Origin: Nitrosopumilus sp.
GTDB taxonomy: Archaea; Thermoproteota; Nitrososphaeria; Nitrososphaerales; Nitrosopumilaceae
Assembly: GCA_965205215.1 (NCBI GenBank)
Contig: OZ242041.1
Coordinates: 1,568,001-1,632,000 of the forward strand
Length of the DNA stretch: 64,000 bases
Direction of reading: 5' to 3'
The notes beneath the pieces were generated by a model, which was not told where the DNA came from, ran no database searches, and worked only from the letters and a program-made list of their open reading frames with translations. Numbering within the stretch: position 1 is the stretch's first letter; every line of letters begins with the position of its first letter. Positions 3,193 to 22,869 of this stretch are shown here, one piece after another. A program made the position numbers and the translations under genes.

Positions 3193-5475
3193 TTACTGGA
3201 ACGGATCGATAAATGGGCAGTTGACAATGTGATCGCTGTCCATCGGACGGGCCAGACTGGCAGTTATCAGCCCCTCATCCAGGAATGCTCTGATGTCGCC
3301 CGTAGTCTCAAGCAGCCTTGCGTCTGCAGGATCCTTCCACTCTATGATATAGATGCGCCACATGGGCGAATACCCCGCATCGCCAAGGGCGGAGCTTGCA
3401 ATGCCGGGCTGGAAGCCCAGAGGACCTGAACCGGCAATGCCGTTTGCAAACTGGTACAGGTCAACTGCGGCAGAGTTTGCAATGAGTGCGGCAGAGGTGT
3501 CTGCAGAGACGACCCCCATCATGTTGGCAGGCCCGCTCGGCGTGGCGTCTGTCACTATATAGTATATGGTACGACCGTCAGGGCCCCATCCGCGGTGGGC
3601 AACAAACGTTACGGTCATCTCCTCGGTGTCGATTTCAAGTATCTGTCCCCCTCCGTATGGCGTGTCGTCGTTTATGGATGCGTCCTCCTTTACCACCATC
3701 TGTCCGCCCGGCCATACGATGTGTGGCATGTTGATCACCACGCCGATGTCGTCAAGCGATACCTCGCCGGCGTCGGCAGCCTCCATTATGGCGGCCTCCG
3801 AATCAAGTATGCGCGGGGAGGCCGAGTCGGCCCACGTCACATGCGTCTGGGCGGCAAGTGCGCTGTACGTATCTGCCTGCTCCGGGGTGCTTGTAAACAC
3901 CTGGTTCTGGAATCCGTGTATGCCGTCACCCTCGACCCCGTTTGTAAACATGTACGTCGTGGAGAGCGCCGCATCGGGGGCGTTCCCAAGGAATGGTGCC
4001 ATCTCGACCCTCCAGTCTTGGAGTTCGGTGATTATGCCGGCATGGATCTCGTCATTAGTGTCCGTGATGACATAGTACACATCCTGTCCCTCATGGTATC
4101 CCATGTGCAATGGAATGTCTACGGCAACGTTGGCCCTCGAAAGCCTCAGCTCCATCTCTTTTGGCTCCTCCATCATTGCTTCCTCTTCCTGCGCCATCAT
4201 TGCTTCCTCCTCTTGTGGCATCATCTCCTCTTCTTCCTGCGCCATCATTGCTTCCTCCTCTTGTGGCATCATCTCCTCTTCTTCCTGCGCCATCATTGCT
4301 TCCTCCTCTTGTGGCATCATCTCCCCTTCTTCCTGCGCCATGGGTTCCATCGCGGCATCGTATGGGGCAAAGTTCTTTGGAAGCTCCATAATCTGCTCTG
4401 CGTCAAGCGGCAGCAACGGCATGCTGATTACAATAGGAATCTCAGTCAGAAGCACGTCGCCGGATCCCTCTGCGGCCATGATCGAGTCCTCGGACGTCAG
4501 GAGTCGCGGATCCGCGTCGTTGGTCCACGTCACGTGCACGTGCGTGGAGAGCGGACTATACGCCTCGTCGCCCGGAACCGACGTGAACACCTGCCTCTGG
4601 AATCCGTGCACGCCGGGTCCCTCTATGCCGTTCGTGAAGAAATACACCTTTGAGACGGAGGCGGCACCGACGTCTGCAAGCATTGGCACGTGCACAGAGT
4701 CAAGTCCCTGCAGCCTTGTCACCAGTTCGGAGTGCGTCTTGTCGCTGGATTCCAGTATCGTATTGTACACCTTCTGTCCGTCGTAAAATCCATAGTGGAG
4801 CGGCACCCGCAGTATCTTCTCAGGCGTCCTGTCCAGCGTTTCTGACTGCACCAGTGACATTGTGAATCGAGGCATGTTGATCACGACGTCAAGCTCGGTC
4901 AGTTCCAAGTCACCCGCCTCGGCGGCCGACAGTATGGCCTGCTCGGATGTCAATATCCTTGGAAGCACGCCCTCGTACCACGTCACGTGTATGTGTCCGG
5001 CCAGCGGCGAATAGTTGTCCTGTCCCGGAACCGACGTAAAGACCTCGCTCTGGAATCCGTGCACGCCGCTGCCGCGCACGCCGTTTGTAAACATGTATGT
5101 GACAGAGCGCACGTCCTCCGGGACCGACGCCAAGGACGGCACGTACTCGACAGTCCAACCCTGGGCCTGGGTGATCACGTCGGCATGCACGCGCTCACTT
5201 GCCTCCGTTATGATGTAATATGCGGACTGGCCGTCATAATACCCCTTGTGAAGGGGCACCGTGATGCCAGCAACGTCAACGTCCGGGGCGTCCTCGGCCG
5301 ACTCGCCTGCCTGCGCCGCAACCCATGCGTCGCGGCCGCCCTCAATCTCGGAGCAGAGCTGCAGTCCGCACACGTCGTTGTTTGCGCCAAAAGCCTCGGT
5401 CAAGGGACTTGGGCCGGAACCCGTCACTAGAAGAGGGGCCACGGATATTGCGGCAATAATGAAAAGGTAATTCAT
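3193..5475 (-). CDS. Secreted repeat protein with four copies of a DUF7482-like domain and a Met/Glu-rich linker
   Basis: Signal peptide. Repeated PLHxG(Y/F)(Y/H)xG...F(T/A)NG(V/I)xGxG(V/I)HGFQxxVFTSxP...YS(P/A)L...HVTW...PRIL units. Confidence 0.8.
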   Translation of the reverse strand: MNYLFIIAAISVAPLLVTGSGPSPLTEAFGANNDVCGLQLCSEIEGGRDAWVAAQAGESAEDAPDVDVAGITVPLHKGYYDGQSAYYIITEASERVHADVITQAQGWTVEYVPSLASVPEDVRSVTYMFTNGVRGSGVHGFQSEVFTSVPGQDNYSPLAGHIHVTWYEGVLPRILTSEQAILSAAEAGDLELTELDVVINMPRFTMSLVQSETLDRTPEKILRVPLHYGFYDGQKVYNTILESSDKTHSELVTRLQGLDSVHVPMLADVGAASVSKVYFFTNGIEGPGVHGFQRQVFTSVPGDEAYSPLSTHVHVTWTNDADPRLLTSEDSIMAAEGSGDVLLTEIPIVISMPLLPLDAEQIMELPKNFAPYDAAMEPMAQEEGEMMPQEEEAMMAQEEEEMMPQEEEAMMAQEEEEMMPQEEEAMMAQEEEAMMEEPKEMELRLSRANVAVDIPLHMGYHEGQDVYYVITDTNDEIHAGIITELQDWRVEMAPFLGNAPDAALSTTYMFTNGVEGDGIHGFQNQVFTSTPEQADTYSALAAQTHVTWADSASPRILDSEAAIMEAADAGEVSLDDIGVVINMPHIVWPGGQMVVKEDASINDDTPYGGGQILEIDTEEMTVTFVAHRGWGPDGRTIYYIVTDATPSGPANMMGVVSADTSAALIANSAAVDLYQFANGIAGSGPLGFQPGIASSALGDAGYSPMWRIYIIEWKDPADARLLETTGDIRAFLDEGLITASLARPMDSDHIVNCPFIDPFQ
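4168..4341 (-). repeat. Intragenic 48-bp tandem repeat (about 3.5 copies; AMMAQEEEEMMPQEEE)
   Basis: Unit gccatcattgcttcctcctcttgtggcatcatctcctcttcttcctgc repeated in tandem, built from 24-bp subunits. Confidence 0.9.
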
Positions 5476-8198: not shown

Positions 8199-8294
8199 AG
8201 TTTGGAGAATGGAAGAATTATTGCCTTATGAATCTTGACATAAAAGTTCGGGCTAAGCCCCTGCCCGGACGCCCATGGTAACACCGGAGCGTGC

Positions 8295-8915
8295 CTACCG
8301 GTTTTTCCAATCTTGCATCCGGTTCACGCCTAGGCTGGGCTGGGTGTTGCTTACATCTAGCGCCGGGGTCAGTCCGTACATGTGCACGCGCAGTGGCCAG
8401 TCCTTGTCCCGGTGCCTTTTTTGCATCCCGGACAGCTTGCGCCTGTACAGATCCTCGCTTTGGACGGCTTCGGCATCCATCTGCTTGTCAACCTCCACAA
8501 TCTCGCCTGTAGTGCCTTATCCTTCTGACGCACTGCCTCGGCACAAGATCGTCTTGCGCGTCGCCGGGACTGAGCGCGTCCATCCGGGGCAGCACCTTGT
8601 GCGGGTACACGTTGGCCGCGCGCACCGCCTTGCGTCCGCTTGCGTGTTAAGGCACTGTCCCCGCCCCAAGACCCTTCCCCTTCCGTCTGCTATGCAGTAA
8701 TCACGTACTATCTTTTCAATGTCGATTCCCATGCTCACCTTCATCCTTTCTTCTCACCTCCCTTGCGGATGTCTCTAATGAAACGGAAGCTGCGTGAATC
8801 ATCAAAGCGCGCAGCCCAGTCATACAACAGCTCGGACTTTCCCATTCTGTCCCAGAGGCGCTTGGCCCACAGTACCCCAAGGGTCGCTCCATCGCGGCGC
8901 GCACTGAGCAGGCGC
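8295..8915 (-). pseudogene. Possible decayed small-gene cluster (fragmented ORFs)
   Basis: A start-less fragment ...LWAKRLWDRMGKSELLYDWAARFDDSRSFRFIRDIRKGGEKKG* overlaps the start of ORF 8517..8744 (ATGA). ORF 8295..8498 follows. No family recognised. Confidence 0.25.
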
Positions 8916-9104
8916 CATCATGCATTCTGTCGCGAATTCGGAATCTGCCAAGCGACAGAGCTGCATTATTGTACACATGCAGATCAATGCGCCCGGACAC
9001 TGTTATTATGATGTTTGTTATTTGTGCCATTATGTCGGCCCCCCGAATTCGCAACAGAACCAGAATTCTGAATATTAATATACACAGCATATAAGACCAT
9101 ATCG

Positions 9105-11894
9105 TTGAAAATAACTGCCATATCTCTTCTTGCGGCCATGCTGGCCGTTGGCGTCTTAAGCGTGACATTTTCAAGCTCGTCAGCAGCATACGCCGCCGCC
9201 GATTACCTCCCTCCTGCAAAGCAGGTTGAGATGGATGTGGACCCAGAAGACGTGACATGCCAGGGTGAGCGCGTGCTGTTGCTCAGGACAAACGGTGCGC
9301 CGATTTGCGCACTCCCGGGATCCGTGGACATGATCGTCGAGCGCGGCATTGCAACGGTAGTGGAGCGTGATCCGGCAGACGAGGCGCCTGCCGAATCCGA
9401 CCCGTTAGCCTCCGACCTGCGGGTCTCGATGACCGTATTCTCAGACCGGTTTGCCGTAATGAAAGAGGACGTAGTCAAGATCACGCGCGACGCCATTGCG
9501 GCGTACGAGTCAGACGGTGACGCGTCCCTGGATGCAATGACCGCGGGCTCATCGATGTATGACGGCAGCGGCCCGTATCCGTTTGTGGTAGACTCCGAGA
9601 CCATGATCATTGTGGCCCACGGGTTCATGCCCGAAAGGGTCGGGATGGTCGCCGAGCCGTTCCTAACCAGCGGAATGACGTTTGACGAGCTGAGGTCCGA
9701 GCTGGAATCCGAGGGCAGCCTCTGGCTGATGTACACGTTCATAGACCCCGAGTCCTCGCACAACGCGACCAAAAAGGCATACCTTGAGCTGCACGACGGA
9801 CTGATCTTTGGCAGCGGGATTTACCCCGATGGCCTAGAGGTGCAGATGATGAAGGCCATGTGGGTTGTCAGCAATGCCGTTGAGATGTACGACGAGTCCG
9901 GCATTGACGCGTTTGGTATGATAAACGATGCCGCCGCCGACTACGTGCCCGGCGACATCTATCCGTTTGCGTCCAGCCTCACTACGATGAACGTGGTTGC
10001 GCACGGGGCGGATCCGAGCCGCGTCGGGGACAAGTCCGTGGTGCTGACTGGCGCCAACAAGGATCTTGAGCGCATACTGCTGGAGTCTGAGATGAATGGC
10101 GGGACGTGGGTGGCGTATACCTTTAACAACTTTGAGACAGGCGCCGAGGAGACGAAGCTTTCCTGGGTTGTGGCCCGGGATGACTATATCCTTGGAGCCG
10201 GCTTCTACCCAGACGGGTACCAGACCTCCAAGGTACACGCCATAATGTCGACGGACAACGCCCTCTTCCTGTACGCGCAGTACGGCGAGGACGCATTCCC
10301 AAAGATCACCGCCCTGAACGTGACGGAGGAATGGTACCCGTTTGTCAGTGATGGCGAAATCGGACTTGAGATAGCAGACGGCTCGATTCTGGACAGGACC
10401 GGCGTCCTGTACTGGGAGGCGCACGAGTTTAACGCGGCATACGGGCCCGTGATGGACGTACTGGAATCCGGACACGGGGCGTACATATCGTACGTGTTCC
10501 TAAACCCCGAAACCGGCATGCAGCAGGCCAAAAAGGCCTGGATCGTCCTTCACGACGGGTACATCTTTGGGGCCGGTTTCTACCTTACAGGCGTGCACGG
10601 GGATGTCACGGCCGTAAAGTGGTCGATAGACACTTCAGTCGAGCTGTACAAGCTACAAGGCGCGGAGGACACGTTTGCGGCCATAACCTCGGCGGAGCCT
10701 GCCTCTGAATCATATCCGTTCGTCATAGACTCGGACAGCTTTGATCTGACGGCCCACGGGGCAGACCCGGGCCTGGTCGGCTCCAACTTCTTTGACCTGG
10801 TCACCCCGGACAAGGACGAGGAGCAGATCATGGCCGACCTGTCAGACGGTGACGGCGCCACGACATGGGTAAAGTACGTGTTTGTCAACCCGGAGACCGG
10901 CATGGACGCGGAAAAGACCGTGCTACTAAAGATGCATGACGGCTACATATTCGCTGCAGGGTATTATCAGGACGACGACGATATGACCTCGACAGACGGC
11001 GCAGCCGAGGCGGCGGTAGTAAAGCTCAAGTGGACCGACTCGGCTCAGTTTGCCGGCATCTACACGGCAGACCAGAACGGGTACTATCTGGACAACGGCA
11101 TGACAGTCGCCATAGAGCCGTTTGGATTTGAGAGCACGTCCATAGAGGACGTGGTTTCCGGCGCGGCAGACTTTGGCATTACGGGCGCCGACGAGCTCTT
11201 GGTAGCGCAGTCCAACGGAGCAGATGTGCGCGCCTTGGCAGTCATATACCAGCAGAGCCCGCTTGTGGCGATGGCGCTGGAGGAGTCCGGAATCACAGAG
11301 CCAAGGGACTTTGTGGGAATGAAGTTCGGGGCGCCCGGAGGCGAGTTCATCATAAGGAGCATGCTGGCCAGCCAGGACGTAGACTATGACAGCGACATAA
11401 CCGTTGTCCCCCTGGAGTTTGACATATCGCCTCTGCTAGACGGCGAACTGGACGTCATGGCAGCGTACCTGATCGACCAGCCGCTCATTGCAGAGGATCT
11501 CGGACATAAGACCGTCACAATACACCCGGCCGAGTACGGGGTGAACTTTTACGGCGACGTCCTGTTCACGAGCAACGGCCTGATCCAAGACGATCCGGAG
11601 CTGGTGCAGGGATTCGTCGATGCGACGCTGGCCGGGTGGGAGTACGCACTGGAAAACGTCGACGAGTCTGTACGCCACACGCTGCTCTATGTGGAGGACG
11701 ATGTCGGCATTTCCGAATCCTACCAGCAAAGGATTCTACAGGCCTCCATCCCGCTGATCAAGCCCGATGGAACGGAGGTCGGGCAGATGAGCCACGACAA
11801 ATGGATGCAGTCGTACGAGCTCCTGCTGGACTTCGGCATTATAGACTCTGAGCTTGACGTAGGCGAGTCGTACACGACGGAGTTTCTAAACTAG
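9105..11894 (+). CDS. Secreted protein: thaumarchaeal PPxKQ/Cys-pair N-domain, 4 single-Cache-like domains and an NMT1/THI5-like ABC substrate-binding domain
   Basis: Signal peptide. Four ~125-aa units YPF...A(H/D)G...Y(T/V)F...K...(H/R)D(G/D)(L/Y)I(F/L)(G/A)xG(I/F/Y)Y. C-terminal LKWTDSAQFAGIYTADQNGYY...ADFGI...YGVNFYGDVLFT...GFVDATLAGWEYA. Confidence 0.85.
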   Translation: MKITAISLLAAMLAVGVLSVTFSSSSAAYAAADYLPPAKQVEMDVDPEDVTCQGERVLLLRTNGAPICALPGSVDMIVERGIATVVERDPADEAPAESDPLASDLRVSMTVFSDRFAVMKEDVVKITRDAIAAYESDGDASLDAMTAGSSMYDGSGPYPFVVDSETMIIVAHGFMPERVGMVAEPFLTSGMTFDELRSELESEGSLWLMYTFIDPESSHNATKKAYLELHDGLIFGSGIYPDGLEVQMMKAMWVVSNAVEMYDESGIDAFGMINDAAADYVPGDIYPFASSLTTMNVVAHGADPSRVGDKSVVLTGANKDLERILLESEMNGGTWVAYTFNNFETGAEETKLSWVVARDDYILGAGFYPDGYQTSKVHAIMSTDNALFLYAQYGEDAFPKITALNVTEEWYPFVSDGEIGLEIADGSILDRTGVLYWEAHEFNAAYGPVMDVLESGHGAYISYVFLNPETGMQQAKKAWIVLHDGYIFGAGFYLTGVHGDVTAVKWSIDTSVELYKLQGAEDTFAAITSAEPASESYPFVIDSDSFDLTAHGADPGLVGSNFFDLVTPDKDEEQIMADLSDGDGATTWVKYVFVNPETGMDAEKTVLLKMHDGYIFAAGYYQDDDDMTSTDGAAEAAVVKLKWTDSAQFAGIYTADQNGYYLDNGMTVAIEPFGFESTSIEDVVSGAADFGITGADELLVAQSNGADVRALAVIYQQSPLVAMALEESGITEPRDFVGMKFGAPGGEFIIRSMLASQDVDYDSDITVVPLEFDISPLLDGELDVMAAYLIDQPLIAEDLGHKTVTIHPAEYGVNFYGDVLFTSNGLIQDDPELVQGFVDATLAGWEYALENVDESVRHTLLYVEDDVGISESYQQRILQASIPLIKPDGTEVGQMSHDKWMQSYELLLDFGIIDSELDVGESYTTEFLN

Positions 11895-12331
11895 TGTTGC
11901 ACTGGCACGGGCAGGGCCCTGTGCCGGGGTTATGCGCCCGTACCCGTACCGTGTCCGGTCAAGCCGTGCCCGGGCGGAGCCCCCGGCAAACCGGCACGTC
12001 ATGCCCTCGATTGCAGGGCCGCGGCAGCACACGATGTGACCTCCGCACACGACGCGGCCCCATGATGCCGAGCACAGGCCTTGCGCCACCCTCGCTTTTT
12101 ACAAGGCATTCCGGCGGCGACAGGGCCCCGGTCTGAAATCTCAAAATGCAGACTGGCAGGCGCGGGTTTTCAAGGAACACGTGACCATGCAGCGGCGCGG
12201 GTCGGCGGACAAGTGCGTGCGCCAACGGGGCTCATGCGAGGCATGCGGCACATCCATGAGACCCCCGCTCTGCGGCATCCCGTACGGATGGCAGGCATGC
12301 CAGATCAGGACGCGTGCGGGGAGTGTCCGCG

Positions 12332-12460
12332 TCACTCTACCGTATCGTGCGGCTTTGTGTTCTCATCATGGCAGTCGCATGAGCACAGGTAGGTGGAGTG
12401 GTTGTTCTTGCAGTCTATGCATTCGTAGTGTTTGCGGGCCTCACATGCGGCGCAGATCAT
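12332..12460 (-). CDS. Small Cys/His-rich microprotein (42 aa)
   Basis: MICAACEARKHYECIDCKNNHSTYLCSCDCHDE..., preceded by an AT-rich element near 12478-12495. Confidence 0.6.
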   Translation of the reverse strand: MICAACEARKHYECIDCKNNHSTYLCSCDCHDENTKPHDTVE

Positions 12461-12644
12461 TGCTTGCTCTATGCACGCTTTGAATTTTAGCTTTTCTAGG
12501 GTAGGTGCGCGGCACGTATTGCGCCTTGTGCTTGTTGAAGACATACCTGACCCCCCATCTTTCCAGTTTCAGTCCGTAACCTCTCCACTTTTGGCCAGGC
12601 CGGCGCCTCTTTCCAGCGGCCGCGGCGGCAGAACAGCGACATCA

Positions 12645-15600
12645 TTAGCGGCAATAAAGCGTCGGCGGATCCGCGGAGGGCAGAACGCCGCCCGGGACAA
12701 GTATGTCAGACAGATAGTATCCGGACCCAAACACCAGGCCGTCATACATGACAAGCCATGCGCGCTTGGTCTCCTCCTGTCCCGTTACGGGGTTCGTGTG
12801 CGTGTAGTCGACCCACGTGCCGACCCCGCGGCTTGTCTTATCCAATATATCCCGCGCCGGGAGCGCCCCGACGATGGCATCCCAGTCCGGCGTGCCGCCT
12901 ATCCGGCCCGGATCCGCGCTCTGCGCCAGCGTGCTTCCGGTCTGCGGGTCGACTACAAAGCCGTACGTGGAGACCGGCGCAGGCGGGACTGCGTTTATCG
13001 AGGCGAGGGCCGAGATCTGCCCGTCGCGCTGGTACTGTAATATGTTGCCGTACACTATCGACTGCACGCTAGAGTCCACCGTGTAATAGCCGGAGCCAAA
13101 GACCAGCCCGTCGCGCATCTGGAGGTAGCTGCGCTTGATCTGCTCCACGTCCGTGGCCGGGTTGTGGAATATGTACGTGACCCACAGGCTGCCCTCCCGC
13201 CTGAGCTCTGCAAGGACGTCGGCGACGGACCTGCTGGAGGTGTCCAGGATGGTCTCGGGCTGCCCCACCCTGGCGGGCACGACGCCGTCGGCCAGCCTCG
13301 TCCAAGTTGCCGCATCAATCACGAACGGGTACAGGGCGTCGGTGGTGATTGGCGCGTCAGGCGTGATTATGTCCACCCACGCGTCGTTGGCCTTGTTGGC
13401 CTCGTAGACGCGTATTGCGTTGCTTACGGCAAACTTGACGTCGGACTCTGATACGTCAGACGAATAGTGCCCCACCCCGAATACCAGGCCCCGGTGCAGG
13501 ACCAGCCATGCGTGCTTGATCTCCTCCTGGCCCGTTATGGGATTAGTGTGCGTGTATGCAACCCATGTGCCGGCTCCGCGGCTTATTTTATCCACCACAT
13601 ATTGTGACGAGAGTACGGATGTGATGGCACTCCAGTCGGCTGTACCGCCTATCAGGCCCGGGTTCACGTTCTGCGCCAGCGTGCTTCCGGTCTGCGGGTC
13701 GACTACAAAGGCGTACGAGGTGAACGGTTCGGGCGGTATGGAGTTTATCGAGGCCAGGGCCGCGTCCTGCCCGTCGCGCTCATACGACAGTATGTGGCCG
13801 TGCAGTGTAGACTGCACCTGGGAGTCCAGCGTATAATAGCCGGAGCCGAAGACCAGCCCGTCGTGCAGCTCAAGGTAGCTGCGCTTGATCTGTTCTATGC
13901 CCGTGGCCGGGTTGTGGAACGTGTACGTGACCCACAGGCTGCCCTCCCGCCTGAGCTCTGCAAGGACGTCGGCGACGGACCTGCTGGAGGTGTCCAGGAT
14001 GGTCTCGGGCTGCCCCACCCTGGCGGGCACGACGCCGTCGGCCAGCCTCGTCCAAGTTGCCGCATCAATCACGAACGGGTACAGGGCGTCGGTGGTGATT
14101 GGCGCGTCAGGCGTGATTATGTCCACCCACGCGTCGTTGGCCTTGTTGGCCTCGTAGACGCGTATTGCGTTGCTTACGGCAAACTTGACGTCGGCCTCTG
14201 GTATGTTGGATGAATAGTACCCCGATCCAAATATCAAGCCCCGGTGCAGGACAAGCCACGTGCGTTTTGCCTCTTCTTGTCCTGTTATCGGCTCCGTATG
14301 CGTGTAGCTGACCCACATGCCGGGCTCGCGGTTCAGTTCACCCAGGATGTCCTGCACGGAGAGCACTTGGAGAATGGCACTCCAGTCGGTTGTGCTGCCT
14401 ATCAGGCCCGGATCCACGTTCTGCGCCAGCGTGCTTCCGGTCTGCGGATCGACTACAAAGCCGTACGTGGAGGTCGGCTCCTCGGGGACGGCATTTATGA
14501 GGGCGATGGCAGCGTTCCTGCCCTGGTTGTCGTGTTCCAATATGTTGGTATACGCTATGCCCTGCACCTGGGAGTCCAGCAGGTAGTAGCCTGAACCGAA
14601 GACCAGCCCGTCGCGCATCTGGAGATAGGTGCGCTTGAGCTGCTCCACGCCGGTGGCAGGGTTGTGGAACGTGTACGTCAGCCACGTTCTGCCGTTCTGC
14701 TCAAGATCTGCAAGGACGTCGGCAACGGACCTACCGGAGGTCTCCAGGATGGTCTCGGACTGACCCACCCTGGTGGGCACGACGCCGTCGGCCAGCCTAG
14801 TCCAAGTTGCCGCGTCTATAACGAACGGGTACAGGTCGTCAGTCACGACGGGTTCGTCAGGCGTGATGATGTCCATCCACGCGTCGTTCTCACGGTTGGA
14901 CTCGTAGATAAACCGGGCATAATCGGTCACCGACTGGGTGTCGGCGTCTGCAATAGTATATGGAGATATGAAGGCGTAACCGTCGTGAATGGTAACCCAG
15001 GCGCGCTTGATCTGGTGTATGCCGGTATATGAGTCAAAAAACGAATACTGCGACCAGTACGAGTCCCCATCCTCAAAGCCGCTCAAATCGTAGCTGCCGA
15101 TTGCCAGTGCCACATCTGGAAGTGGTCCGACTAGACCAGGCACCGTGCCATGGGCAAGTATGTGCGTGCTGCTTCTCACCAGCGGATAGAGATCTATTCT
15201 GTTGAGCGCTCCGGAATTAATCAGGTCAAAGGCGGTTGTGGGATCGTTTCTGTACGTATAGATGGCGCCGTCTACCACAGACTGGGACCGAAGGTCCGGC
15301 AGCGAGTAGCTTGCGCCAAATATGTAACCGCCATGCAATATGATGTAAGTGCGGGTGAGTTGGTTCGTCTGGGTTGCGGGGTTTAGATCCATGTGCCATA
15401 TCCAGACGCCGCCGTCCCGTAGTTCCGCCAGGATGGTCGCCAGGGGCTTGTCGGCCTCCTCAAGGTGCGTGCTGGTGGTCCCCACCAAGTTGGGCGTCCT
15501 GGCATGGGCCACCACCTCGAAGGTTGCCGCATCCAATACAAAGGACGACTTTGTTGACCGCGGATCAGGCGCATCCGGCGTTATCATCCCAAAGGCACTC

Positions 15601-16556
15601 GTGCCGTGGGCCGTATACAGGATTCTGGCCGAGTCCGCCTGTGCCTGCGCCCGGGAGTCGCTTGGGTAGTAGCCGGTGCCAAACACATAGCCGTCGTGCA
15701 GGTATAGCCAGGTGCGCTTGATCTGGCCCATGTCGGTGCCAGGGTTGTGGAACGTATATGTCGCCCACGTGCCCTCGTTTGCCCCGAGATCCGCACGGAC
15801 GTCGGCGACGGACCTGCTGGAGGTGTCAAGGATGGCATCCGGCTGCCCCACCCTGCTAGGCACCACCTCGTCGGCCACCCGCATCCAAGACGAGTAGTCT
15901 ATCACAAACAGGTAGAGTTCGTCCGTAAGGACGGGATCATCAGGAGTAATACTGTCAAAAAAGGCCTGCGCATTACCGTACGATTCGTACTGCCTTACCT
16001 TTTCCTCTATGAACAGCTGGACCTCGGTGTCCGGCAGGTAGTGCCCCGCGGCAAATATGTAACCGTCGTGCAGGTACAGCAGCGCGCGTGTCGTCTGATC
16101 CTCCAGGTTGGCAGGGTTTTTGTCTATGTACGTGACCCACACCCGGTCATTTTGCGCCAGATCGGCACGGATTTGGCTGATGGACCTGTCTGCCGCCTCC
16201 AAGGCTTCCGCCCGCTGGCCCACCTGTCCGGCATCCGCACTATGCGCCACTATCCTCAGGGTATTGAGATCCGCCACGAACGAGACCGGTGCGCCGGCGC
16301 CCGCCGATCCTGCAGACGTGATTGCGGTAAACGCGGCCTGTCCTTGCGCCGCGTATAGCGCCTGGATCCTGTCCACCTCTGTACCGATCCGACTGTCAAT
16401 GCTGCTTTGATCATACAGCGTACGTCCTTGCTGGGATTGGCCATGGGCGTCCGCTGCGGGAGCAAGGCATGCTACAAGCGCGATCAGCACCACTGCGGTG
16501 ACGGCAGTCGACACTGGGGTTGTACTTGAGCGTAACAAGGATTTGGGCATCTCCAC
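12645..16556 (-). CDS. Secreted poly-Cache protein (10 tandem single-Cache-like domains, no TM or output domain)
   Basis: Signal peptide ending AADA. Ten ~125-aa units ending (H/R/Y)(D/G/R)G(Y/L)xFG(S/T/A/V)GYY-like. TTTATA box at 16586-16581. Confidence 0.85.
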   Translation of the reverse strand: MEMPKSLLRSSTTPVSTAVTAVVLIALVACLAPAADAHGQSQQGRTLYDQSSIDSRIGTEVDRIQALYAAQGQAAFTAITSAGSAGAGAPVSFVADLNTLRIVAHSADAGQVGQRAEALEAADRSISQIRADLAQNDRVWVTYIDKNPANLEDQTTRALLYLHDGYIFAAGHYLPDTEVQLFIEEKVRQYESYGNAQAFFDSITPDDPVLTDELYLFVIDYSSWMRVADEVVPSRVGQPDAILDTSSRSVADVRADLGANEGTWATYTFHNPGTDMGQIKRTWLYLHDGYVFGTGYYPSDSRAQAQADSARILYTAHGTSAFGMITPDAPDPRSTKSSFVLDAATFEVVAHARTPNLVGTTSTHLEEADKPLATILAELRDGGVWIWHMDLNPATQTNQLTRTYIILHGGYIFGASYSLPDLRSQSVVDGAIYTYRNDPTTAFDLINSGALNRIDLYPLVRSSTHILAHGTVPGLVGPLPDVALAIGSYDLSGFEDGDSYWSQYSFFDSYTGIHQIKRAWVTIHDGYAFISPYTIADADTQSVTDYARFIYESNRENDAWMDIITPDEPVVTDDLYPFVIDAATWTRLADGVVPTRVGQSETILETSGRSVADVLADLEQNGRTWLTYTFHNPATGVEQLKRTYLQMRDGLVFGSGYYLLDSQVQGIAYTNILEHDNQGRNAAIALINAVPEEPTSTYGFVVDPQTGSTLAQNVDPGLIGSTTDWSAILQVLSVQDILGELNREPGMWVSYTHTEPITGQEEAKRTWLVLHRGLIFGSGYYSSNIPEADVKFAVSNAIRVYEANKANDAWVDIITPDAPITTDALYPFVIDAATWTRLADGVVPARVGQPETILDTSSRSVADVLAELRREGSLWVTYTFHNPATGIEQIKRSYLELHDGLVFGSGYYTLDSQVQSTLHGHILSYERDGQDAALASINSIPPEPFTSYAFVVDPQTGSTLAQNVNPGLIGGTADWSAITSVLSSQYVVDKISRGAGTWVAYTHTNPITGQEEIKHAWLVLHRGLVFGVGHYSSDVSESDVKFAVSNAIRVYEANKANDAWVDIITPDAPITTDALYPFVIDAATWTRLADGVVPARVGQPETILDTSSRSVADVLAELRREGSLWVTYIFHNPATDVEQIKRSYLQMRDGLVFGSGYYTVDSSVQSIVYGNILQYQRDGQISALASINAVPPAPVSTYGFVVDPQTGSTLAQSADPGRIGGTPDWDAIVGALPARDILDKTSRGVGTWVDYTHTNPVTGQEETKRAWLVMYDGLVFGSGYYLSDILVPGGVLPSADPPTLYCR
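12700..14950 (-). repeat. 750-bp tandem triplication inside the poly-Cache gene
   Basis: 13172-13444 is identical to 13922-14194. The block ctgcgccagcgtgcttccggtctgcgg(g/a)tcgactacaaag recurs at 12921, 13671 and 14421. Confidence 0.92.
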
Positions 16557-16602
16557 CTGTCGGAGGAGGGAATTGCGAACTATAAAGCAGTTGTGCCATG
16601 AG

Positions 16603-18095
16603 AACTTTGTTTCCTAATTCCCCCCGTGCACGCCGGCCAAGTCCAAGTCGGGCGGCGGCGTGGCCGTCATGCCGTCATGCCGTCCCCCTCCCGCCTCCCG
16701 GGCAATCGACTCGTCCCTCCACCTGTTGTACAGGGCCACCTTGAGCCTCACCTCCTGCACGATGTTCTCCCACTTGAGGGCCATCAGATGCTCTCCGAAC
16801 AGGCGCTTGAATGCTGAAAACACGCTCTCCGCGAGCCACCTTTGGCCGTAGCCTATCCGGGTCTTCCAGTATGTCTGGTTCTCCTTCTTCTCCTCCCTGC
16901 TCATCAGGTCCAGGCGCGTCGCGTCTGGGCTTCCCCCCAGCTGGTCCCTTACGGACTCGCCCCACGCGTCGCCGGATCCCTTGCCGCGCGCCGTCACGTT
17001 GATTTTGTGCAGGATGCCGGGGACCATCTGGGCCCGCGCGCACGCGGCCGCGTTCTCCCTCGAGCCGTACGCGGCATCGCCGAGCACGACGTCGGGCGCG
17101 TCATGGGCGCCGCGGGGGGCGCCGCCTGCGCGCAACGACGCGAGAGGGGGGACGCCGGACGCGAGAAGGTTCTCGTATCCCGTGACGCTGCTGCTGCCGG
17201 CGGCTCCGGGAGGGGGTGCGGCCGGCGGCTCCAGACTGTCCCCCGCGCCGTCCCCGGCCCCCGCGACCTGCCCGAGCAGCGCGCCGAACATGGCCGAGTC
17301 ACCCACGGAGTCGTCTGTGACCTCCAGGGCCAGTATCTTCTTGGTCTCCGTGTCTACCAGAATGTGCATCTTTACAAAGCCCCGCCTCTTCTTCCACTTG
17401 GCCCTCATCCACTCGCCCCTGTTGTGCTGCTTGAGGCCGCTCGCGTCGAGCGCCAGTATCCTCCGGCTCTTCCTGTCCGATACCGTCACCACGCCGCCGG
17501 AACCCCGGCTTATGTCCGCGTCAAGCCCGGTGATCCGCTTGTACAGCTGGCTGTACGCGGGGGTGTTGGACCTGCCTGCCATCCTCCCGACCATCCCCTC
17601 GAGCTGCCTGTACTTGACCCCCAGCGCGGACCTGAGGGCGGCGGCCATCATTACGAGCGTCTCCGCGTACTGGTACGGGGCGCCCACCTTGCCCTCGTTT
17701 GCGCGCCTTACGTCGTCCTCCCACTCGGGATTGTACTCTATGACGAGGTCCGCCCCGCGCCTGACGTACTTTTCGTTGTCCGTCTTTGCGGCTGCGCCGT
17801 TACGCGCCTGGCTCATGGGTAGCGCCCCTCCACGCTCCTGCCTCCCCTGTGGCCGCGCCGCGCCCTCGGGAAAAGGGCCGGATCATGATTAAATACGGAC
17901 TCTGCGAACCGATGTTGACGTCTGTATAGGCACACCGATGTTGGATGCATCGTGTCTATCTTTCGTCATATACACTTCAAGGCGTGCATGAACGTTCCTT
18001 GCCCGTTTGGCCAGATTTTATTGATCAAATTGGAGACTGCGCCGCCGCAAGGCCGCCGTAGCAGGTGCCTACAGGCAGAATTAGGAAACAAAGTT
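16603..18095 (-). mobile_element. IS5-family (IS903-group-like) insertion sequence
   Basis: Perfect 18-bp TIR AACTTTGTTTCCTAATTC (16603-16620 / 18078-18095). TSD GCCATGAG (16595-16602 / 18096-18103; 9 bp if the adjacent T is counted). Confidence 0.93.
16614..17816 (-). CDS. IS5-family DDE transposase
   Basis: LDASGLK...GEW...GFVKMHILVD, LGDAAYG and YGQRWLAESVFSAFK motifs. The stop codon lies inside the TIR. Confidence 0.9.
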   Translation of the reverse strand: MSQARNGAAAKTDNEKYVRRGADLVIEYNPEWEDDVRRANEGKVGAPYQYAETLVMMAAALRSALGVKYRQLEGMVGRMAGRSNTPAYSQLYKRITGLDADISRGSGGVVTVSDRKSRRILALDASGLKQHNRGEWMRAKWKKRRGFVKMHILVDTETKKILALEVTDDSVGDSAMFGALLGQVAGAGDGAGDSLEPPAAPPPGAAGSSSVTGYENLLASGVPPLASLRAGGAPRGAHDAPDVVLGDAAYGSRENAAACARAQMVPGILHKINVTARGKGSGDAWGESVRDQLGGSPDATRLDLMSREEKKENQTYWKTRIGYGQRWLAESVFSAFKRLFGEHLMALKWENIVQEVRLKVALYNRWRDESIAREAGGGRHDGMTATPPPDLDLAGVHGGN

Positions 18096-18427
18096 GCCAT
18101 GAGCAGTCTTCCCAATGGTACGTCAAAAACAGGGCCACGCAGTAAGAGATCAAAAAAATGGCGGCCCCGTCGGCGTCCTGTGACCAAGAGTAGGCAGGCC
18201 AAGGCGCGACCTGTAACAACCCGGCTGAGCAGAAGCTCAGGATGCCGGCCCCAGAGAACCGACGCGCCGGGATCAGGCCGTCCCGGCGAGTGCGCCGCGC
18301 GCCGCACCGCGTCCTTGTACGGCATGCGGTTTTGCGCGCACCGTGCAGGAGGCCCGGCAAGCGTGCAACCGGCCGCGGGCGCCTCCGCACCGAGACTGTT
18401 ATTATATACAGGCGCCGCACCGCGTGC

Positions 18428-19483
18428 ATGGGCCTCAAGAGATACGCCGCCACCAGGGTTGCCACCATGTTCGGTGTGCTGATGATAACGCTGCTCATCA
18501 CAATCGCGCTTGTAGGCTCCAATATGGACAGCATACTAAAGCAGGGGATTGCATTCCAAGTGAGAAGCCAGATTACGGAGAACCCGGCCACTGCAGAGAG
18601 GTTCACGTCAGTGGAGGAGTTCGAGTTGTTCGTGCAGGAGCAGATAGAGGCCAGGACGGCCCTGCTAGGGCTTGACGAGCCGTGGTACTCGCCGCAGCGC
18701 ATAGGGATCACAATGTACAAGATAATGCTGCTTGACTTTGGACAGGCCACCTTCATCACAAGCGACTCGGGCTCCTCGGACGTCAGGGAGATAATACTTG
18801 AAAAGCTCCCAAGGACCATACTCCTGTTCACGACGGCCACTGTTGTAATCTCAATCGTGGGCATATTCCTAGGGGCCCTTGCTGGAAGCAGGACGGGCTC
18901 CGCAATAGACAAGCTGACCTCCAGCTTTGCCGTCGTCAGCTCGAGCTTTCCGGTATGGTGGGTGGGGATGATCATGATATTCCTGTTTGCATTCACATAC
19001 CAGGTGTTTCCGGCAAGGGCGACGCCGGAGATCCTGCCAGACGAGCCGGGATACGCCGCGGCCCTGCTGTACCACATGACGCTTCCCCTCATCACCATAG
19101 TGCTGATAGGGTTCGGGGCGTGGGCGTACCTTGTCAGGAACTTTATGGCGGGGATAATGCAGGAGGACTTCATATCGGCAAAGAGGGCCATCGGCATAAG
19201 GCGCAAGAAGATCATATACGCGCACGCCCTGAAGAACGCCGCCCCGCCCATAGTCACCATACTGGCCCTCAGCCTGTCCGGCTCGCTTGGCGGCGCCATC
19301 ATAACGGAGGCGGTGTTTGACTGGCCTGGCATGGGGCGGCTCTACTTTGAGGCCATAACGGTAATGGATCTGCCCGTAATCATAGGGGCCACGTACATGC
19401 TCACGGTGTTCTTTCTTGCCAGCATATTTACCGCAGACATACTGTACGGCTATTTCGATCCCAGGGTGAGGACGTCGAGTTGA
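18428..19483 (+). CDS. Oligopeptide/dipeptide ABC transporter permease (OppB/DppB-like)
   Basis: Multi-TM, EDFISAKRAIG EAA-like loop, TEAVFDWPGMGRLY, DPRVR. Start taken at ATG 18428. Confidence 0.92.
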   Translation: MGLKRYAATRVATMFGVLMITLLITIALVGSNMDSILKQGIAFQVRSQITENPATAERFTSVEEFELFVQEQIEARTALLGLDEPWYSPQRIGITMYKIMLLDFGQATFITSDSGSSDVREIILEKLPRTILLFTTATVVISIVGIFLGALAGSRTGSAIDKLTSSFAVVSSSFPVWWVGMIMIFLFAFTYQVFPARATPEILPDEPGYAAALLYHMTLPLITIVLIGFGAWAYLVRNFMAGIMQEDFISAKRAIGIRRKKIIYAHALKNAAPPIVTILALSLSGSLGGAIITEAVFDWPGMGRLYFEAITVMDLPVIIGATYMLTVFFLASIFTADILYGYFDPRVRTSS

Positions 19484-21084
19484 GCGCGGGTGACAGCGGG
19501 GCGGCGGGGCCTCCGGGAAAGGAGGGGCCGCACGAAAAAAAAGAAGGGGAGGTAGAGTACGCGGCACCTGCGCCGGCCGCGGGGCCGCGGCCGTCTCCTA
19601 CGTCACCGTCACACCCGACGCCGCCGTCGCCGCCGAGGACACCGGATGCGGTAGCTGACGCGGGAGGGTTGCGCGACACGTGGCGCGAGATCTTGTCAAG
19701 CCGCATGGGGGCGGCAGGCGTTGTAATACTCGCGGCCCTGATAATTACATCGGCGGCCACCATAGTTGCCATCCCAGTCGAGACCCTCCAGGAATGGAAC
19801 AATCCAAAGAGCTGGATATCATATCCAAAGGCCGCCGTCCCCGCGTGGACCAACGCCATCCTGCCGCAAAAGATACCCGAACACATGATGTTTGACGACC
19901 CCGCAGTGTCAGAACGCGCCGTGGCCGTGGACGGCGCCGCAGGTGCGATAACTGTCACCGAGCACGAATTCACGGTGGACTACGAGTACGACGACTTTCC
20001 AAGCGACTTCATCTACAGCTTTTCGGCAGGGTATGAGGGATCCCCGCTCCTAGAGGTGTCGGCGGACAGGCCGGACGGGAGCACGATCCTGCTGCTCTCA
20101 AAAGCCCTGCCGCGCCTTGCGGCGGATCGTGGAAGTGAGGGGGGGCTGGCAGACTATAGCGGCGGCCCCGCGACGCATTCGGAGCGCATATTCTCGACGG
20201 ACAGCACGATACGGAAGAACATTGCGATGCAGGCGCCCTCCATATTCAGGCACGACACGTCGGGCGCGTCGGCCGAAGATGTGCTGTTCTCTGACGCCGC
20301 GGACGGCTCCGTGCTGCGGGGCGTGTACACGTTCCGCGTAACCGTGTCTAGTTTGGAGGGGTTCGACATGCTCGAGTCACGGCTCGTGGTAGGCGGCAAG
20401 GCGTTTGGAATAATGGGCACCGACGAGCTGAGGCGCGACCTTGCAATAGGGCTGCTGTGGGGAACGCCGCTTGCCCTGTTCATCGGAATCACGGTGGCCG
20501 TGGCGTCGGTGGTTGCGGGGCTCCTGTACGGGGTCTACGCCGGATACCGCGGCAAGAAGACCGACGAGGCCATGATGAGGTTCAACGACGTGATATACGC
20601 GTTGCCGGCGCTGCCGTTTCTAATCATACTCTCGGTTACGATCAGCAACAGTATACTGCTCATGGTCGGGTTCCTTGCCATGTTCGGATGGGTCGGGGTC
20701 GCAAAGGTGGCGCGCAGCATGTCGCTCCAGATAAAGACCAGGGGATACGTGGACGCGGCCGAGACGATGGGCCAGAGCCGCTCCAAAATAATAACAAGGC
20801 ACATAGTCCCGCAGCTGCTGCCGTACGCGTTTGCAAGCATAGCGATATCGGTTCCGGCCGCCATCACGACGGAGGCGGGCCTGAGCTTCCTGGGGCTGGG
20901 CGACCCGAGCTTCCCCACATGGGGGCAGATACTGCACGATGCAAACACGTTTGGCGCCGCGGCGAGGGGGTTGTGGTGGTGGATGGTGCCGCCTGGCGTC
21001 ATGATAGCGATAACGGGGCTCGCCTTTGTGTTTATAGGAAACGCCCTAGACAGCATAGTAAACCCGCGGCTCAGGCGGCATTAG
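19480..21084 (+). CDS. Oligopeptide/dipeptide ABC transporter permease (OppC/DppC-like) with large extracellular loop
   Basis: MGTDELRRDL, YVDAAETMG, TEAGLSFLGLG, PTWGQIL and WWW motifs. Confidence 0.92.
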   Translation: MSAGDSGAAGPPGKEGPHEKKEGEVEYAAPAPAAGPRPSPTSPSHPTPPSPPRTPDAVADAGGLRDTWREILSSRMGAAGVVILAALIITSAATIVAIPVETLQEWNNPKSWISYPKAAVPAWTNAILPQKIPEHMMFDDPAVSERAVAVDGAAGAITVTEHEFTVDYEYDDFPSDFIYSFSAGYEGSPLLEVSADRPDGSTILLLSKALPRLAADRGSEGGLADYSGGPATHSERIFSTDSTIRKNIAMQAPSIFRHDTSGASAEDVLFSDAADGSVLRGVYTFRVTVSSLEGFDMLESRLVVGGKAFGIMGTDELRRDLAIGLLWGTPLALFIGITVAVASVVAGLLYGVYAGYRGKKTDEAMMRFNDVIYALPALPFLIILSVTISNSILLMVGFLAMFGWVGVAKVARSMSLQIKTRGYVDAAETMGQSRSKIITRHIVPQLLPYAFASIAISVPAAITTEAGLSFLGLGDPSFPTWGQILHDANTFGAAARGLWWWMVPPGVMIAITGLAFVFIGNALDSIVNPRLRRH

Positions 21085-21091
21085 CGCCGGA

Positions 21092-21409
21092 TCAGCAGTT
21101 GCGATACGCGCGTATGGCAGAGATTGCGGAGCTGCTGAGTCGTATCGTATAGTTCCCAGAGTTGGGATCCGAGTCCTTTGACTGGGCAAGGGTCTCGACA
21201 AACTGCGTCTTCTTCTCGTCGACTGCCCCCGCCTCATGGGCGCACAGGTTGAACGCCTTGAGGTTGAGTCCCTTCTCCAGCAGGTACGCGATGAATTTCT
21301 TGTACCCCTCGGGGTCGTCCCATTCCTCTCCGCGCTCCCCACATGCAGCTATCCAGACGTCGACTGAATTATGAAACGCCACCTTTTGGCGCAGGTCGTC
21401 AAGGGACAT
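21092..21409 (-). CDS. Conserved hypothetical protein
   Basis: MSLDDLRQKVAFHNSVDVW..., translationally coupled to the upstream gene. Confidence 0.7.
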   Translation of the reverse strand: MSLDDLRQKVAFHNSVDVWIAACGERGEEWDDPEGYKKFIAYLLEKGLNLKAFNLCAHEAGAVDEKKTQFVETLAQSKDSDPNSGNYTIRLSSSAISAIRAYRNC

Positions 21410-21747
21410 CAGAAATCGGCTCGCTGCATCTTGGAGCCGCACCGGGGGCAGGATCCTCCCTTGTGCTTGTTGTTGCACACGAGGCAGACATACCTCACGC
21501 CGCCGGAGCCACCCTGTGAGCCCAGTCCAAAGAATCCGCCGGCGCGGCTTCCCGTACCGGACGGGCCGCCCCCGCCGTAGCCCCCGCGCATACGGTTGAG
21601 ATACTGCCTCCGGAGCAGCAGCGGAAACGCGATGAACAGGCCGATGGCCGCCACAAGCCCGTACGGAAACGGAAGCACCATCTGCAGCCCTATGCTGACA
21701 CCCAGCGACACGAACAGGAATATCAGGTACGTCTTATAGTTGAACAC
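21409..21747 (-). CDS. Small membrane protein with C-terminal zinc ribbon
   Basis: Two TM helices, Gly-rich linker, CLVC...CPRCGS. Confidence 0.8.
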   Translation of the reverse strand: MFNYKTYLIFLFVSLGVSIGLQMVLPFPYGLVAAIGLFIAFPLLLRRQYLNRMRGGYGGGGPSGTGSRAGGFFGLGSQGGSGGVRYVCLVCNNKHKGGSCPRCGSKMQRADF

Positions 21748-21978
21748 AGATGTGACACGTCCAAAAAAGGTTATAAAGTTTTGTCAAACCCCGGCGGCAC
21801 CCAATCCCATACGCCATGCCCGAAATGTACCCATTTAACGAAGCCCTCTGGACTGCAAGAGTGACACCGCAAACACGGCGCGCGACGGCCGAGTCACGGC
21901 TTTGCCAACGGTGCGCAGAGGGGTTGCTGCCGAACATGCAAGGGCGTCGCGTATCGGCCCCGGCAGTTGTGAGGCACG

Positions 21979-22275
21979 TCATTCGGCGGTGGGCGCGTCC
22001 GACTCGTCGGGGATGTTCTTGGACTCCTCGGCCCAATTCGGATCGACTGAATCCCAGAGTGAGCTGAGCGCCGCAGGATCAAGCTTGGTCTCGCCCAGTA
22101 CCCTGTTTCGCACCGCAAAGAAAAAGTTCACCATGGCGTCAAGTCCCCCGTCGGAATGGATCTCGCGCCCAATCTCAGTTATGCGCAACTTTTGCGCGGC
22201 GGCATCCGCAGAATCCGGCGCCTGCAGGCACGACGTAAACAGATCCACAAGTTCCTCCTCAAGCATAAAGTCCAA
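21979..22275 (-). CDS. Conserved hypothetical protein
   Basis: 98-aa ORF (IGREIHSDGGLDAM). Confidence 0.65.
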   Translation of the reverse strand: MDFMLEEELVDLFTSCLQAPDSADAAAQKLRITEIGREIHSDGGLDAMVNFFFAVRNRVLGETKLDPAALSSLWDSVDPNWAEESKNIPDESDAPTAE

Positions 22276-22467
22276 ACAAGTGTCGTACCATAGGTTTACT
22301 TTTTAGCGTTGCGGATTGGCCCAAGAACCGGATCCCGCGAGAGGCCACGCGTGCAGTCCGTCACGGGGGCCGCGACAGGGCCAGGATCAGGACAGTGCAC
22401 GGGCACATGCATGCCCGCCTCGTAGGCGCTGCAGGAGGGCGCAGGGGGCCGGGGCCAAAGTACGCAG

Positions 22468-22869
22468 TTACGGCCCTACCTCAAGTGGGATTTGCTTTCC
22501 ACCGCTGTCCCATGCAAACACCGACTTGTCCTCGTACGGAAAGCCCACAATCACGGAGACAAGCCCAAAAAAGTTGTGCAGGTCGGTCACGGACGGCGTG
22601 GCAGGCCCGCTTGGATGCGAGTGGACCATGCCTATATAGCTCATGTCAAACGGCAGAAAGGAGTGCGGAAACCCCGCAAACGTGGGCCCCGAGTGGCTGA
22701 ACGGAGGAATTACAAGTCCGTCCACTGTGATCACGCCGTTTTTTGACTTGCCCTTTAGTATCAGGACGCCCTCGTTTGGGTGCTTCATCTGGCAGTACGA
22801 CAGTATGCTGTCGAGTACCTCGCGGTGCAGCACCACGCGTCGCTCGTATTTCGTCCTCTTGAAGAACAT
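22468..22869 (-). CDS. JAMM/MPN+ (Mov34) metalloprotease
   Basis: HPNE...HSHPSG...PSVTD JAMM motif. Confidence 0.9.
   Translation of the reverse strand: MFFKRTKYERRVVLHREVLDSILSYCQMKHPNEGVLILKGKSKNGVITVDGLVIPPFSHSGPTFAGFPHSFLPFDMSYIGMVHSHPSGPATPSVTDLHNFFGLVSVIVGFPYEDKSVFAWDSGGKQIPLEVGP

Follow-up and report, generated by a model that had tools for sequence, protein, structure and literature searches.

Tandem Cache-domain arrays without signalling output encoded at a two-gene locus of a Nitrosopumilus genome

Two convergent genes and their dispersed paralogs

We analysed a stretch of 64,000 nucleotides (nt) from a Nitrosopumilus sp. genome (hereafter the window, to which all positions are local unless they are labelled as genome coordinates) containing two convergent open reading frames (ORFs), P0001 and P0002, whose products are built mainly from tandem Cache-type units. 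An earlier note, made from the sequence alone, had described the locus as coding for two proteins with 4 and 10 tandem units of ca. 125 amino acids (aa); the ORFs, a motif scan and a profile of the units agree with this description, and both genes lie exactly where that note had placed them. P0001 (9105..11894, forward strand) is 929 aa long and, according to its ORF, Pfam, NCBIfam and AlphaFold, comprises a predicted signal peptide, a WING-49 domain, four sCache_2-like units, and an NMT1/ThiY-like substrate-binding domain. About one-third of the protein is thus non-Cache sequence, and the description of P0001 as a Cache-only protein had overlooked both the WING-49 domain and a complete NMT1-type domain. 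P0002 (12645..16556, reverse strand; 1303 aa) has a predicted signal peptide, ten sCache_2-like units and a short tail ending in YCR.

The predicted N-terminal signal peptide of P0001 covers residues ca. 1 to 31 (9105..9197, forward strand; ...SSAAYA|AAD; hydropathy scan with a mean Kyte-Doolittle value of 2.05, and inspection) and is followed at residues 37 to 84 by the WING-49 domain (9213..9356, forward strand), which has two conserved Cys residues and matches NCBIfam NF058652 with an E value of 7.9e-11 (41.9 bits, against a cut-off of 22). The four Cache units come next at 9438-9830, 9831-10211, 10212-10589, and 10590-10973 on the same strand (unit alignment, profile, and AlphaFold); in the protein they correspond to residues 112-242, 243-369, 370-495, and 496-623 (motif scan and alignment). 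The C-terminal NMT1/THI5 (ThiY-like) ATP-binding cassette (ABC) substrate-binding domain, identified by PF09084 and by PDB matches, occupies residues 635-928 (11007..11888, forward strand). In P0002, the ten tandem units (12708..16409, reverse strand; identity matrix, di-unit model, Foldseek, and VIA) end at residues 175, 299, 420, 536, 660, 783, 910, 1033, 1160, and 1283, and the tail behind them, residues 1284-1303 (12648..12707, reverse strand), bears the C-terminal signature discussed below as [VIM]CR, with the YCR end at 12648-12656. The motif that closes the units is repeated ten times in P0002, with a spacing of 116-127 residues, and three times in P0001 (motif scan), where unit 4 has the variant RDDYILGAG instead.

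The 14 units, each of ca. 125 aa, share between 23 and 91% pairwise identity. Within P0002, units 5, 7, and 9 are 70-91% identical to each other (91% between units 7 and 9) and units 6, 8, and 10 are 63-65% identical, i.e., the C-terminal 750 residues form a super-repeat in which a block of two units occurs three times. One contig of a sequencing run (X5) skips 756 nt at 13862-14619, exactly two Cache units, which could reflect strain variation in repeat number or a collapse during assembly; on its shorter side, the joint is supported by only 29 nt.

A search of the genome with the 14-unit profile found 38 units in five open frames, with E values from 3.4e-53 to 3.9e-20, far above chance level. 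It recovered all 14 units of the window plus 24 units in three other ORFs, namely C3 (genome 1321255-1325229) and C4 (genome 1486637-1490665), with ten units each, and C5 (genome 1528290-1531052), with four. C5 has an N-terminal plan like that of P0001, to which it is 55% identical across residues 1-625 of the latter, and carries an SBP_bac_3-like domain at its C terminus. We considered the possibility that P0001 and P0002 form a conserved gene pair and rejected it, since the three paralogs are dispersed and unpaired; for the same reason, the two genes can no longer be treated as one system, as had been proposed.

Fold and pocket positions of the units

With Pfam sCache_2 (PF17200), the whole-protein score was 54.1 bits in P0002 and 29.2 in P0001, above the cut-off of 25, each score being a sum of weak stretches. 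The dCache_2 family (PF08269) also exceeded its cut-off of 26.5 (35.9 and 41.2 bits), with the best stretches covering only profile positions 132-297 of 298. Considering this partial coverage, the N-terminal helix that each unit has of its own, and the sCache_2 nature of the best structural matches, we discarded a bimodular dCache_2 domain. The AlphaFold model of P0001, built with 41 homologs, has predicted local distance difference test (pLDDT) values of 81-96 in blocks of 10 residues over residues 110-620; in the substrate-binding part they fall below 50, because most of the aligned homologs carry a different domain there (SBP_bac_3 relatives were mixed in). A model of units 7-8 of P0002, based on 19 di-units of this genome, reached a mean pLDDT of 91.4. 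The modelled unit consists of a helix, two strands, helices, and three strands.

When compared with 48,161 chains by VIA-align, the first-ranked match was 4k08_A, with a Z score of 11.8 (root mean square deviation [rmsd] of 3.0 over 121 residues, 21% identity), followed by 4exo_A at 11.3, while dCache domains, CitA and other PAS-like sensors came lower (Z of 8-9.5). Foldseek gave template modelling scores of 0.59-0.64 and an rmsd of ca. 3.9 Å to 4exo, 2qhk, 5g4y, and 4k08, and the whole-chain model of P0001 matched multi-PAS proteins (rods such as PpsR), CACHD1, and alpha2delta (8s7c, 8x90, 8fd7). The models therefore assign the units to the Cache fold, of the sCache_2 type, and the fold that the earlier note had proposed to check with AlphaFold and Foldseek is borne out. 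These matches include the sCache_2 sensors of chemoreceptors (PscD-SD, 5g4y; Adeh_3718, 4k08; Vibrio parahaemolyticus, 4exo/2qhk), which resemble the units in fold, in extracytoplasmic location and, on the tentative mapping given below, in the spacing of the Tyr/aromatic/His and Tyr/aromatic/Lys residues that bind C2-C3 carboxylates there. In such sensors, however, a single module is flanked by two membrane helices and linked to HAMP and methyl-accepting chemotaxis protein (MCP) signalling domains, whereas the arrays described here string together 4-16 modules behind a lone N-terminal signal peptide and lack an output. The units are also diverged and, at ca. 125 aa, shorter than the Pfam sCache_2 model of 155 positions.

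In PscD-SD, Tyr90, His103, Tyr143, and Lys156 form hydrogen bonds with the carboxylate, which is sandwiched by Trp92 and Trp145; Tyr90, His103, and Lys156 are highly conserved in the sCache seed alignment (PMC5062169). The motifs Y-x-F...H and Y-x-F...(+13)K of the units have the same spacing as in PscD, and the strand register of the model agrees with it. Strand 1 starts with a Tyr, with a Phe two residues on, a His, Asp, or Gln comes after strand 2, strand 3 ends with a second Tyr, again with a Phe two residues on, and a Lys is found exactly 13 positions further, early in strand 4. The best PDB match of unit 4 of P0001 by phmmer was 4exo (weak, E of 0.043), the Tyr and His of which aligned with those of the unit. 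Over 1167 units from 184/185 proteins (the window proteins, their paralogs, and fetched homologs, some of them near-identical cluster members), the four positions are Tyr in 84%, His in 51%, Asp in 21% or Gln in 16%, Tyr in 85%, and Lys in 83%. All four PscD-like residues, as mapped by spacing, register and one weak alignment, are present in 386 of the 1167 units and the pattern Y..Y..K/R in 864. Along the chain, the pocket types succeed each other identically in P0002, C3, and C4 (H, D, H, H, D, Q, D, Q, D, Q), which suggests a constraint on what each position binds. From these sequence patterns we infer that the pockets were kept, with a specificity that would differ between units.

These data also bear on an explanation in which the Cache fold would be just a building block of a fibre or envelope layer, with vestigial pockets. 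Such a structural component would account for the long arrays with their recent internal duplication (units 7 and 9, 91% identical), for the degenerate pocket positions of several units, and for the presence of multi-PAS rods such as PpsR among the best whole-model Foldseek matches, and the 756-nt skip in X5, with 29 nt on the shorter side, is a weak hint of strain variation in repeat number. However, pocket positions would not be expected among the more conserved columns of the 1167 units (Tyr 84-85%, Lys 83%), nor in the same order of types in three 10-unit paralogs, if they were vestigial, and the domains fused to the arrays are binding domains. We consider it the least probable of the explanations discussed here.

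Export, missing output, and fusion partners

In P0001 and P0002 alike, the N terminus bears a single hydrophobic segment with an AxA-like site behind it (Kyte-Doolittle scan and inspection), and the scan found no later hydrophobic segment in either. We rejected the idea that the Cys in the signal peptide of P0002 belongs to a lipobox, as the residue preceding it is not consistently small in relatives and the AxA site follows; this N terminus is read here as an ordinary signal peptide. Pfam and NCBIfam scans detected no HAMP, kinase, MCP, or cyclase family in the two proteins, so that hydropathy and domain searches both agree with the earlier claim that they lack a second transmembrane helix and any of these domains. 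The claim that no transducer is encoded in the window also holds for the ORFs scanned, which were not all of those in the window. Genome-wide, there are no MCPsignal matches and six HATPase_c matches (some of them probably kinases), all outside the window and far from all five poly-Cache loci. As for the relatives, no output-domain accession appeared in the precomputed Pfam column of 53 and 120 listed homologs, the accessions looked for being those that we take to be HAMP, MCPsignal, HisKA, HATPase_c, GGDEF, EAL, and cyclase. When 313 proteins were screened roughly by hydropathy, a terminal membrane segment with a basic tail was found in three and a cytoplasmic region behind the array in none.

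Prokaryotic Cache domains have been described in proteins with signalling output domains, with the exception of one family, and a Cache sensor has been defined by a domain located between two membrane helices and an output domain in the same protein (PMC4822843, in the part of that source available); neither P0001, P0002, nor the relatives scanned show this arrangement. We found no description of output-less Cache arrays, or of their fusions to solute-binding proteins (SBPs), in the literature searched. The animal alpha2delta and CACHD1 proteins are likewise multi-Cache, extracellular, and devoid of kinase or MCP output, but they are membrane-tethered subunits of channels or receptors in which two dCache_1 double modules are interleaved with a von Willebrand factor A (VWA) domain, and not archaeal linear arrays of the sCache_2 type. 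No VWA domain was found by Pfam in P0001 or P0002, and what these animal proteins, with their four Cache modules, have in common with the arrays is a logic rather than an ancestry. The dCache_1 pocket of alpha2delta binds amino acids and gabapentinoids (PMC9901441).

The absence of an output in the same chain could be compensated in trans if soluble or tethered Cache/SBP proteins bound a ligand, docked on a separate membrane kinase or transporter, and regulated it, in the way that SBPs act on some chemoreceptors and kinases. SBP-dependent signalling is established in bacteria (PMC8050422) and the genome has its six HATPase_c matches, but there is no kinase gene near any of the five loci nor a single MCPsignal match, and 10-16 modules per chain are hard to fit to one-to-one docking. 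The same applies to transporters as partners: P0002 would be divergent from a pair of ABC permease genes without the insertion sequence (IS) that now separates them (see below), and C3 lies ca. 1.4 kb from an Opp-type ATPase gene, but permease adjacency was not seen in five relatives among the matches listed. Sensing in trans is, in our opinion, very unlikely.

P0002 ends in ...DPPTLYCR without any hydrophobic stretch, and in C3 and C4 the last three residues are VCR. Known sorting signals of C termini (PGF-CTERM and similar) consist of a motif with a membrane helix and a basic tail behind it; they were considered and discarded for P0002, whose ending is a bare terminal tripeptide with no membrane helix. 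Among the 1517 ORFs of the genome that are 250 aa or longer, 25 have a CR ending, when 1.7-2.5 would be expected (binomial P of ca. 3e-17); these endings include 15 VCR, 4 ICR, and 3 MCR. Most of these ORFs have a strongly hydrophobic N terminus and many have a Pro-rich stretch ahead of the motif; two of the 25 code for SBP_bac_5 proteins and four are 1932-3896 aa long. In the portions of the literature available, we found no description of a [VIM]CR signal, which on these sequence features is a candidate lineage-specific C-terminal sorting or tethering signal. The signature makes the free secretion assumed by the earlier note doubtful for P0002, which would probably be tethered through it.

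Word-indexed searches retrieved 53 and 152 relatives, and a profile run exhaustively against 1.84 billion representatives matched 1790 proteins at E ≤ 0.001, of which 623 reached ≤ 1e-10 and 205 reached ≤ 1e-30. All but two of the best 150 profile matches have 2-16 matched stretches, and the number of units per protein (184 proteins) is mostly 4, 5, 6, or 8, with a maximum of 16. The record titles of the relatives correspond to metagenome-assembled genomes of Nitrosopumilaceae, Nitrosopumilus sp., or Cenarchaeum sp., and their public annotations are "cache domain-containing protein," "ABC transporter substrate-binding protein," or "hypothetical protein," with the accessions PF27194 and PF00497 listed for many of them. 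Within the Nitrosopumilaceae, matches were found in 26 of 151 genomes, or 24 of 115 if only those of high quality are counted, and in 7 of 27 genera; one genus was positive in all nine of its genomes, with up to 114 candidate stretches per genome, while in the genus of the window only one of nine other genomes had a match. The poly-Cache family is a lineage-specific one of the Nitrosopumilaceae.

Fusion to SBP domains is the other recurrent trait of this family. P0001 and its relative P0009 are 81% identical over residues 1-625 and lose all similarity directly after unit 4, where P0001 continues with NMT1 and P0009 with SBP_bac_3. Out of six long representatives, chosen for having much non-Cache length, five contain SBP_bac_5, Peripla_BP_6/ANF_receptor, or SBP_bac_3, sometimes several per chain, alongside surface immunoglobulin (Ig)-like domains, and the sixth had no Pfam match. 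BspA-type leucine-rich repeats, cupredoxin, and LVIVD are further fusion partners. Altogether, the arrays are recurrently fused to four classes of solute-binding domain. The NMT1 fusion is narrow, since the domain was not found in five relatives with that of P0001 as query.

The match of P0001 residues 647-854 to PF09084 (NMT1/THI5) is nearly complete, spanning positions 2-215 of the 216 in the profile (E of 2.4e-45; 155.5 bits, cut-off 20.5). The alignment of residues 635-928 with 4nmy extends over the full length (6-299 to 6-301; E of 7.7e-24), and the last 300 residues match 3ix1 (E of 1.9e-20), which is ThiY, the binding protein of a thiamine pyrimidine precursor. Classical SBPs of the ThiY/NMT1 family (3ix1, 4nmy) are stand-alone proteins of ca. 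300-350 aa encoded beside permease and ATPase genes, whereas the P0001 domain, of 300 aa, is located behind 620 aa of WING-49 and Cache sequence with no adjacent transporter genes. Hence, the earlier proposal that Cache modules have been uncoupled from their output stands as regards the missing output domain, but in P0001 they have been re-coupled to a transport-type substrate-binding domain. WING-49 is present in six ORFs of the genome, several times directly behind a hydrophobic N terminus (the other ORFs are at genome 1884466, 940975, 1137748, 1828704, and 1530669), and in none of 14 control genomes, and we found no mention of the name in the literature. By sequence inspection, one WING-49 ORF looks serpin-like.

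Possible role and genomic surroundings

Of the sequencing runs in which the stretch was found, those with a readable organism field are labelled as sponge metagenome (studies P3, P4, P7, and P9) and coral metagenome (P5), the field of the remaining runs being coded, and the four runs that were compared gave near-identical contigs. In 2021, sponge-associated Thaumarchaeota were reported to be enriched in three Cache Pfams, two of them sponge-specific, which were proposed as candidates for surface recognition (PMC7848895). Those Pfam counts probably correspond to the same genes as the arrays described here, although the part of that source available gives neither the architecture nor the number of repeats and contains no structure, SBP fusion, or analysis of the pocket. 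The statement of the earlier note that no such system had been described consequently stands for the architecture, which we did not find in print, and does not extend to the enrichment of Cache domains in sponge Thaumarchaeota.

Following that proposal, the arrays would bind host or matrix molecules so that the symbiont is recognised, retained, and left undigested, instead of capturing nutrients. Recognition or adhesion at the host interface fits the sponge and coral labels of the metagenomes, the patchy distribution of the family (26/151 genomes), and the BspA-type leucine-rich repeats, LVIVD, cupredoxin, or surface Ig-like domains of some relatives, as well as the CR signature common to giant surface-type ORFs and a collagen-repeat protein encoded in the window. 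The survey of 151 genomes carries no habitat labels, however, and hence gives no host link at the family level, and both the recurrent partners, which are small-molecule solute-binding domains, and the conserved positions, which would be those of a small carboxylate pocket, point elsewhere. We regard this role as unlikely.

Conserved putative pocket positions and repeated solute-binding fusions favour small-molecule binding. The role that we consider most likely, with a probability of roughly 0.55, is that the arrays capture small molecules multivalently on the cell surface and do not signal. Both proteins are predicted to be exported and would act, at the cell surface or in the space below the S-layer, as tandem ligand-binding modules of the sCache_2 type without transducer or output. 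The arrays would hold, and possibly buffer, small organic molecules from the host milieu and would not be receptors. As a first guess, the ligands of the Cache modules may be carboxylate-bearing compounds, and P0001 may pass its ligand to the single, distant NitT/TauT-type ABC importer of the genome. These archaea have been reported to use alpha-keto acids such as pyruvate against hydrogen peroxide; holding such acids would be a possible, speculative use of the arrays. A fuller picture is tentative, and the odds are against it: in host-associated ammonia-oxidising archaea, the most common sensor module of prokaryotes would have become a non-signalling extracellular "metabolite sponge," with 4-16 Cache pockets and up to four SBP classes holding small host acids, amino-acid-like compounds, and vitamin precursors on the cell surface, fixed by an undescribed bare [VIM]CR signal on ca. 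25 exported proteins.

The genome has only five binding-protein-dependent permease genes, i.e., PstC, PstA, one of the NitT/TauT type (130919-131704, genome coordinates), and the Opp/Nik-type pair in the window (18242-21084). The NitT/TauT-type system (genome 128953-131704) has its own binding protein and ATPase, and no permease or ATPase of this type was found beside P0001 among the window ORFs scanned. With so few permease genes, P0001 has at best a distant partner and the SBP_bac_3 domain of C5 none of its class. The Opp/Nik-type transporter, the sole one in the genome, is scattered: its unusually long permeases of 413 and 534 aa are in the window, and two ATPase and three SBP_bac_5 genes are found at genome 1318798, 1639445, 1140046, 1260174, and 104126, C3 being close to one of the ATPase genes, as mentioned above.

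Several observations weigh against capture of small molecules by Cache modules. At the sequence level, none of the 14 single units matched Pfam at E ≤ 0.01, and the 14-unit profile found no Cache chain among PDB sequences at E ≤ 1, only two chance matches, so that the Cache assignment needed structure. Only 4 of the 14 window units (units 1, 2, and 4 of P0001 and unit 4 of P0002) have all four PscD-like residues as mapped above, and both the first Tyr and the Lys are missing from units 1 and 3 of P0002. Regarding uptake, the sole NitT/TauT-type permease is ca. 1.45 Mb from P0001 and has its own binding protein, and there is no polar-amino-acid-type permease in the genome for the SBP_bac_3 domain of C5, which counts against classical uptake. 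Lastly, contigs from an RNA library of a sponge sample cover both genes with at least eight pieces of 188-407 nt (0-4 differences in seven of them) and are consistent with transcription of both, but carried-over DNA is possible in this library and its depth cannot be used as an expression level. The stretches 8200-9495 and 16300-17900 had no RNA contigs, from which no inference is possible.

If multivalent capture is the role of these arrays, the Cache module would also serve for plain ligand binding, in arrays of up to 16 modules fused to SBPs. This concerns archaea with very few transporters and the question of how a symbiont samples the metabolites of its host. Being made of many small, well-folding domains, the proteins are suited to direct ligand screens; in the [VIM]CR ending, archaea may have a new signal for sorting proteins to the surface.

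Next to P0002 there is an IS element (16597..18101, reverse strand) with a DDE transposase at 16614-17816 (Pfam DDE_Tnp_1) and 31-nt inverted repeats, located by an inverted-repeat search. Contigs of runs X5 and X7 lack the element and join 16592 to ca. 18096, the X5 continuation matching 18093-18122. Since it is absent at this site in both, the insertion is recent and specific to the strain; it separates P0002 from the two Opp/Nik-type ABC permease genes (18242..21084, forward strand; Pfam BPD_transp_1; matches to NCBIfam families of Opp/Nik permeases stayed under the cut-offs). If the element is disregarded, P0002 and the permease genes are divergent neighbours. A conserved linkage of poly-Cache genes and this transporter was considered and dropped, as no permease ortholog was found beside a Cache match, among the matches listed, in the relatives G110, G083, G100, G135, and G065. 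Rfam and tRNA scans of the window gave no match, and promoter and terminator scans gave signals no better than chance.

Directly behind the permease genes, neither strand has an ORF that reaches 150 aa over a stretch of ca. 2 kb (21085-23116), which may be a decayed gene or non-coding DNA. Other ORFs of the window code for a DUF7482 protein with four repeats (3193-5475, reverse strand; E of 3.8e-163), a TnpB/Cas12f-like protein (24787-26151, forward strand), and an IS66-family transposase (60153-61670, reverse strand); together with the IS element by P0002, they indicate a region rich in mobile elements. Eukaryote-like repeat proteins, of the collagen and tetratricopeptide repeat (TPR) kind, have been reported in sponge symbionts. 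In the window, a 650-aa ORF (49818-51770, reverse strand) has eight stretches of collagen triple-helix repeats (Pfam, E of 8e-67) and is adjoined by a TPR protein at 51826-53232.

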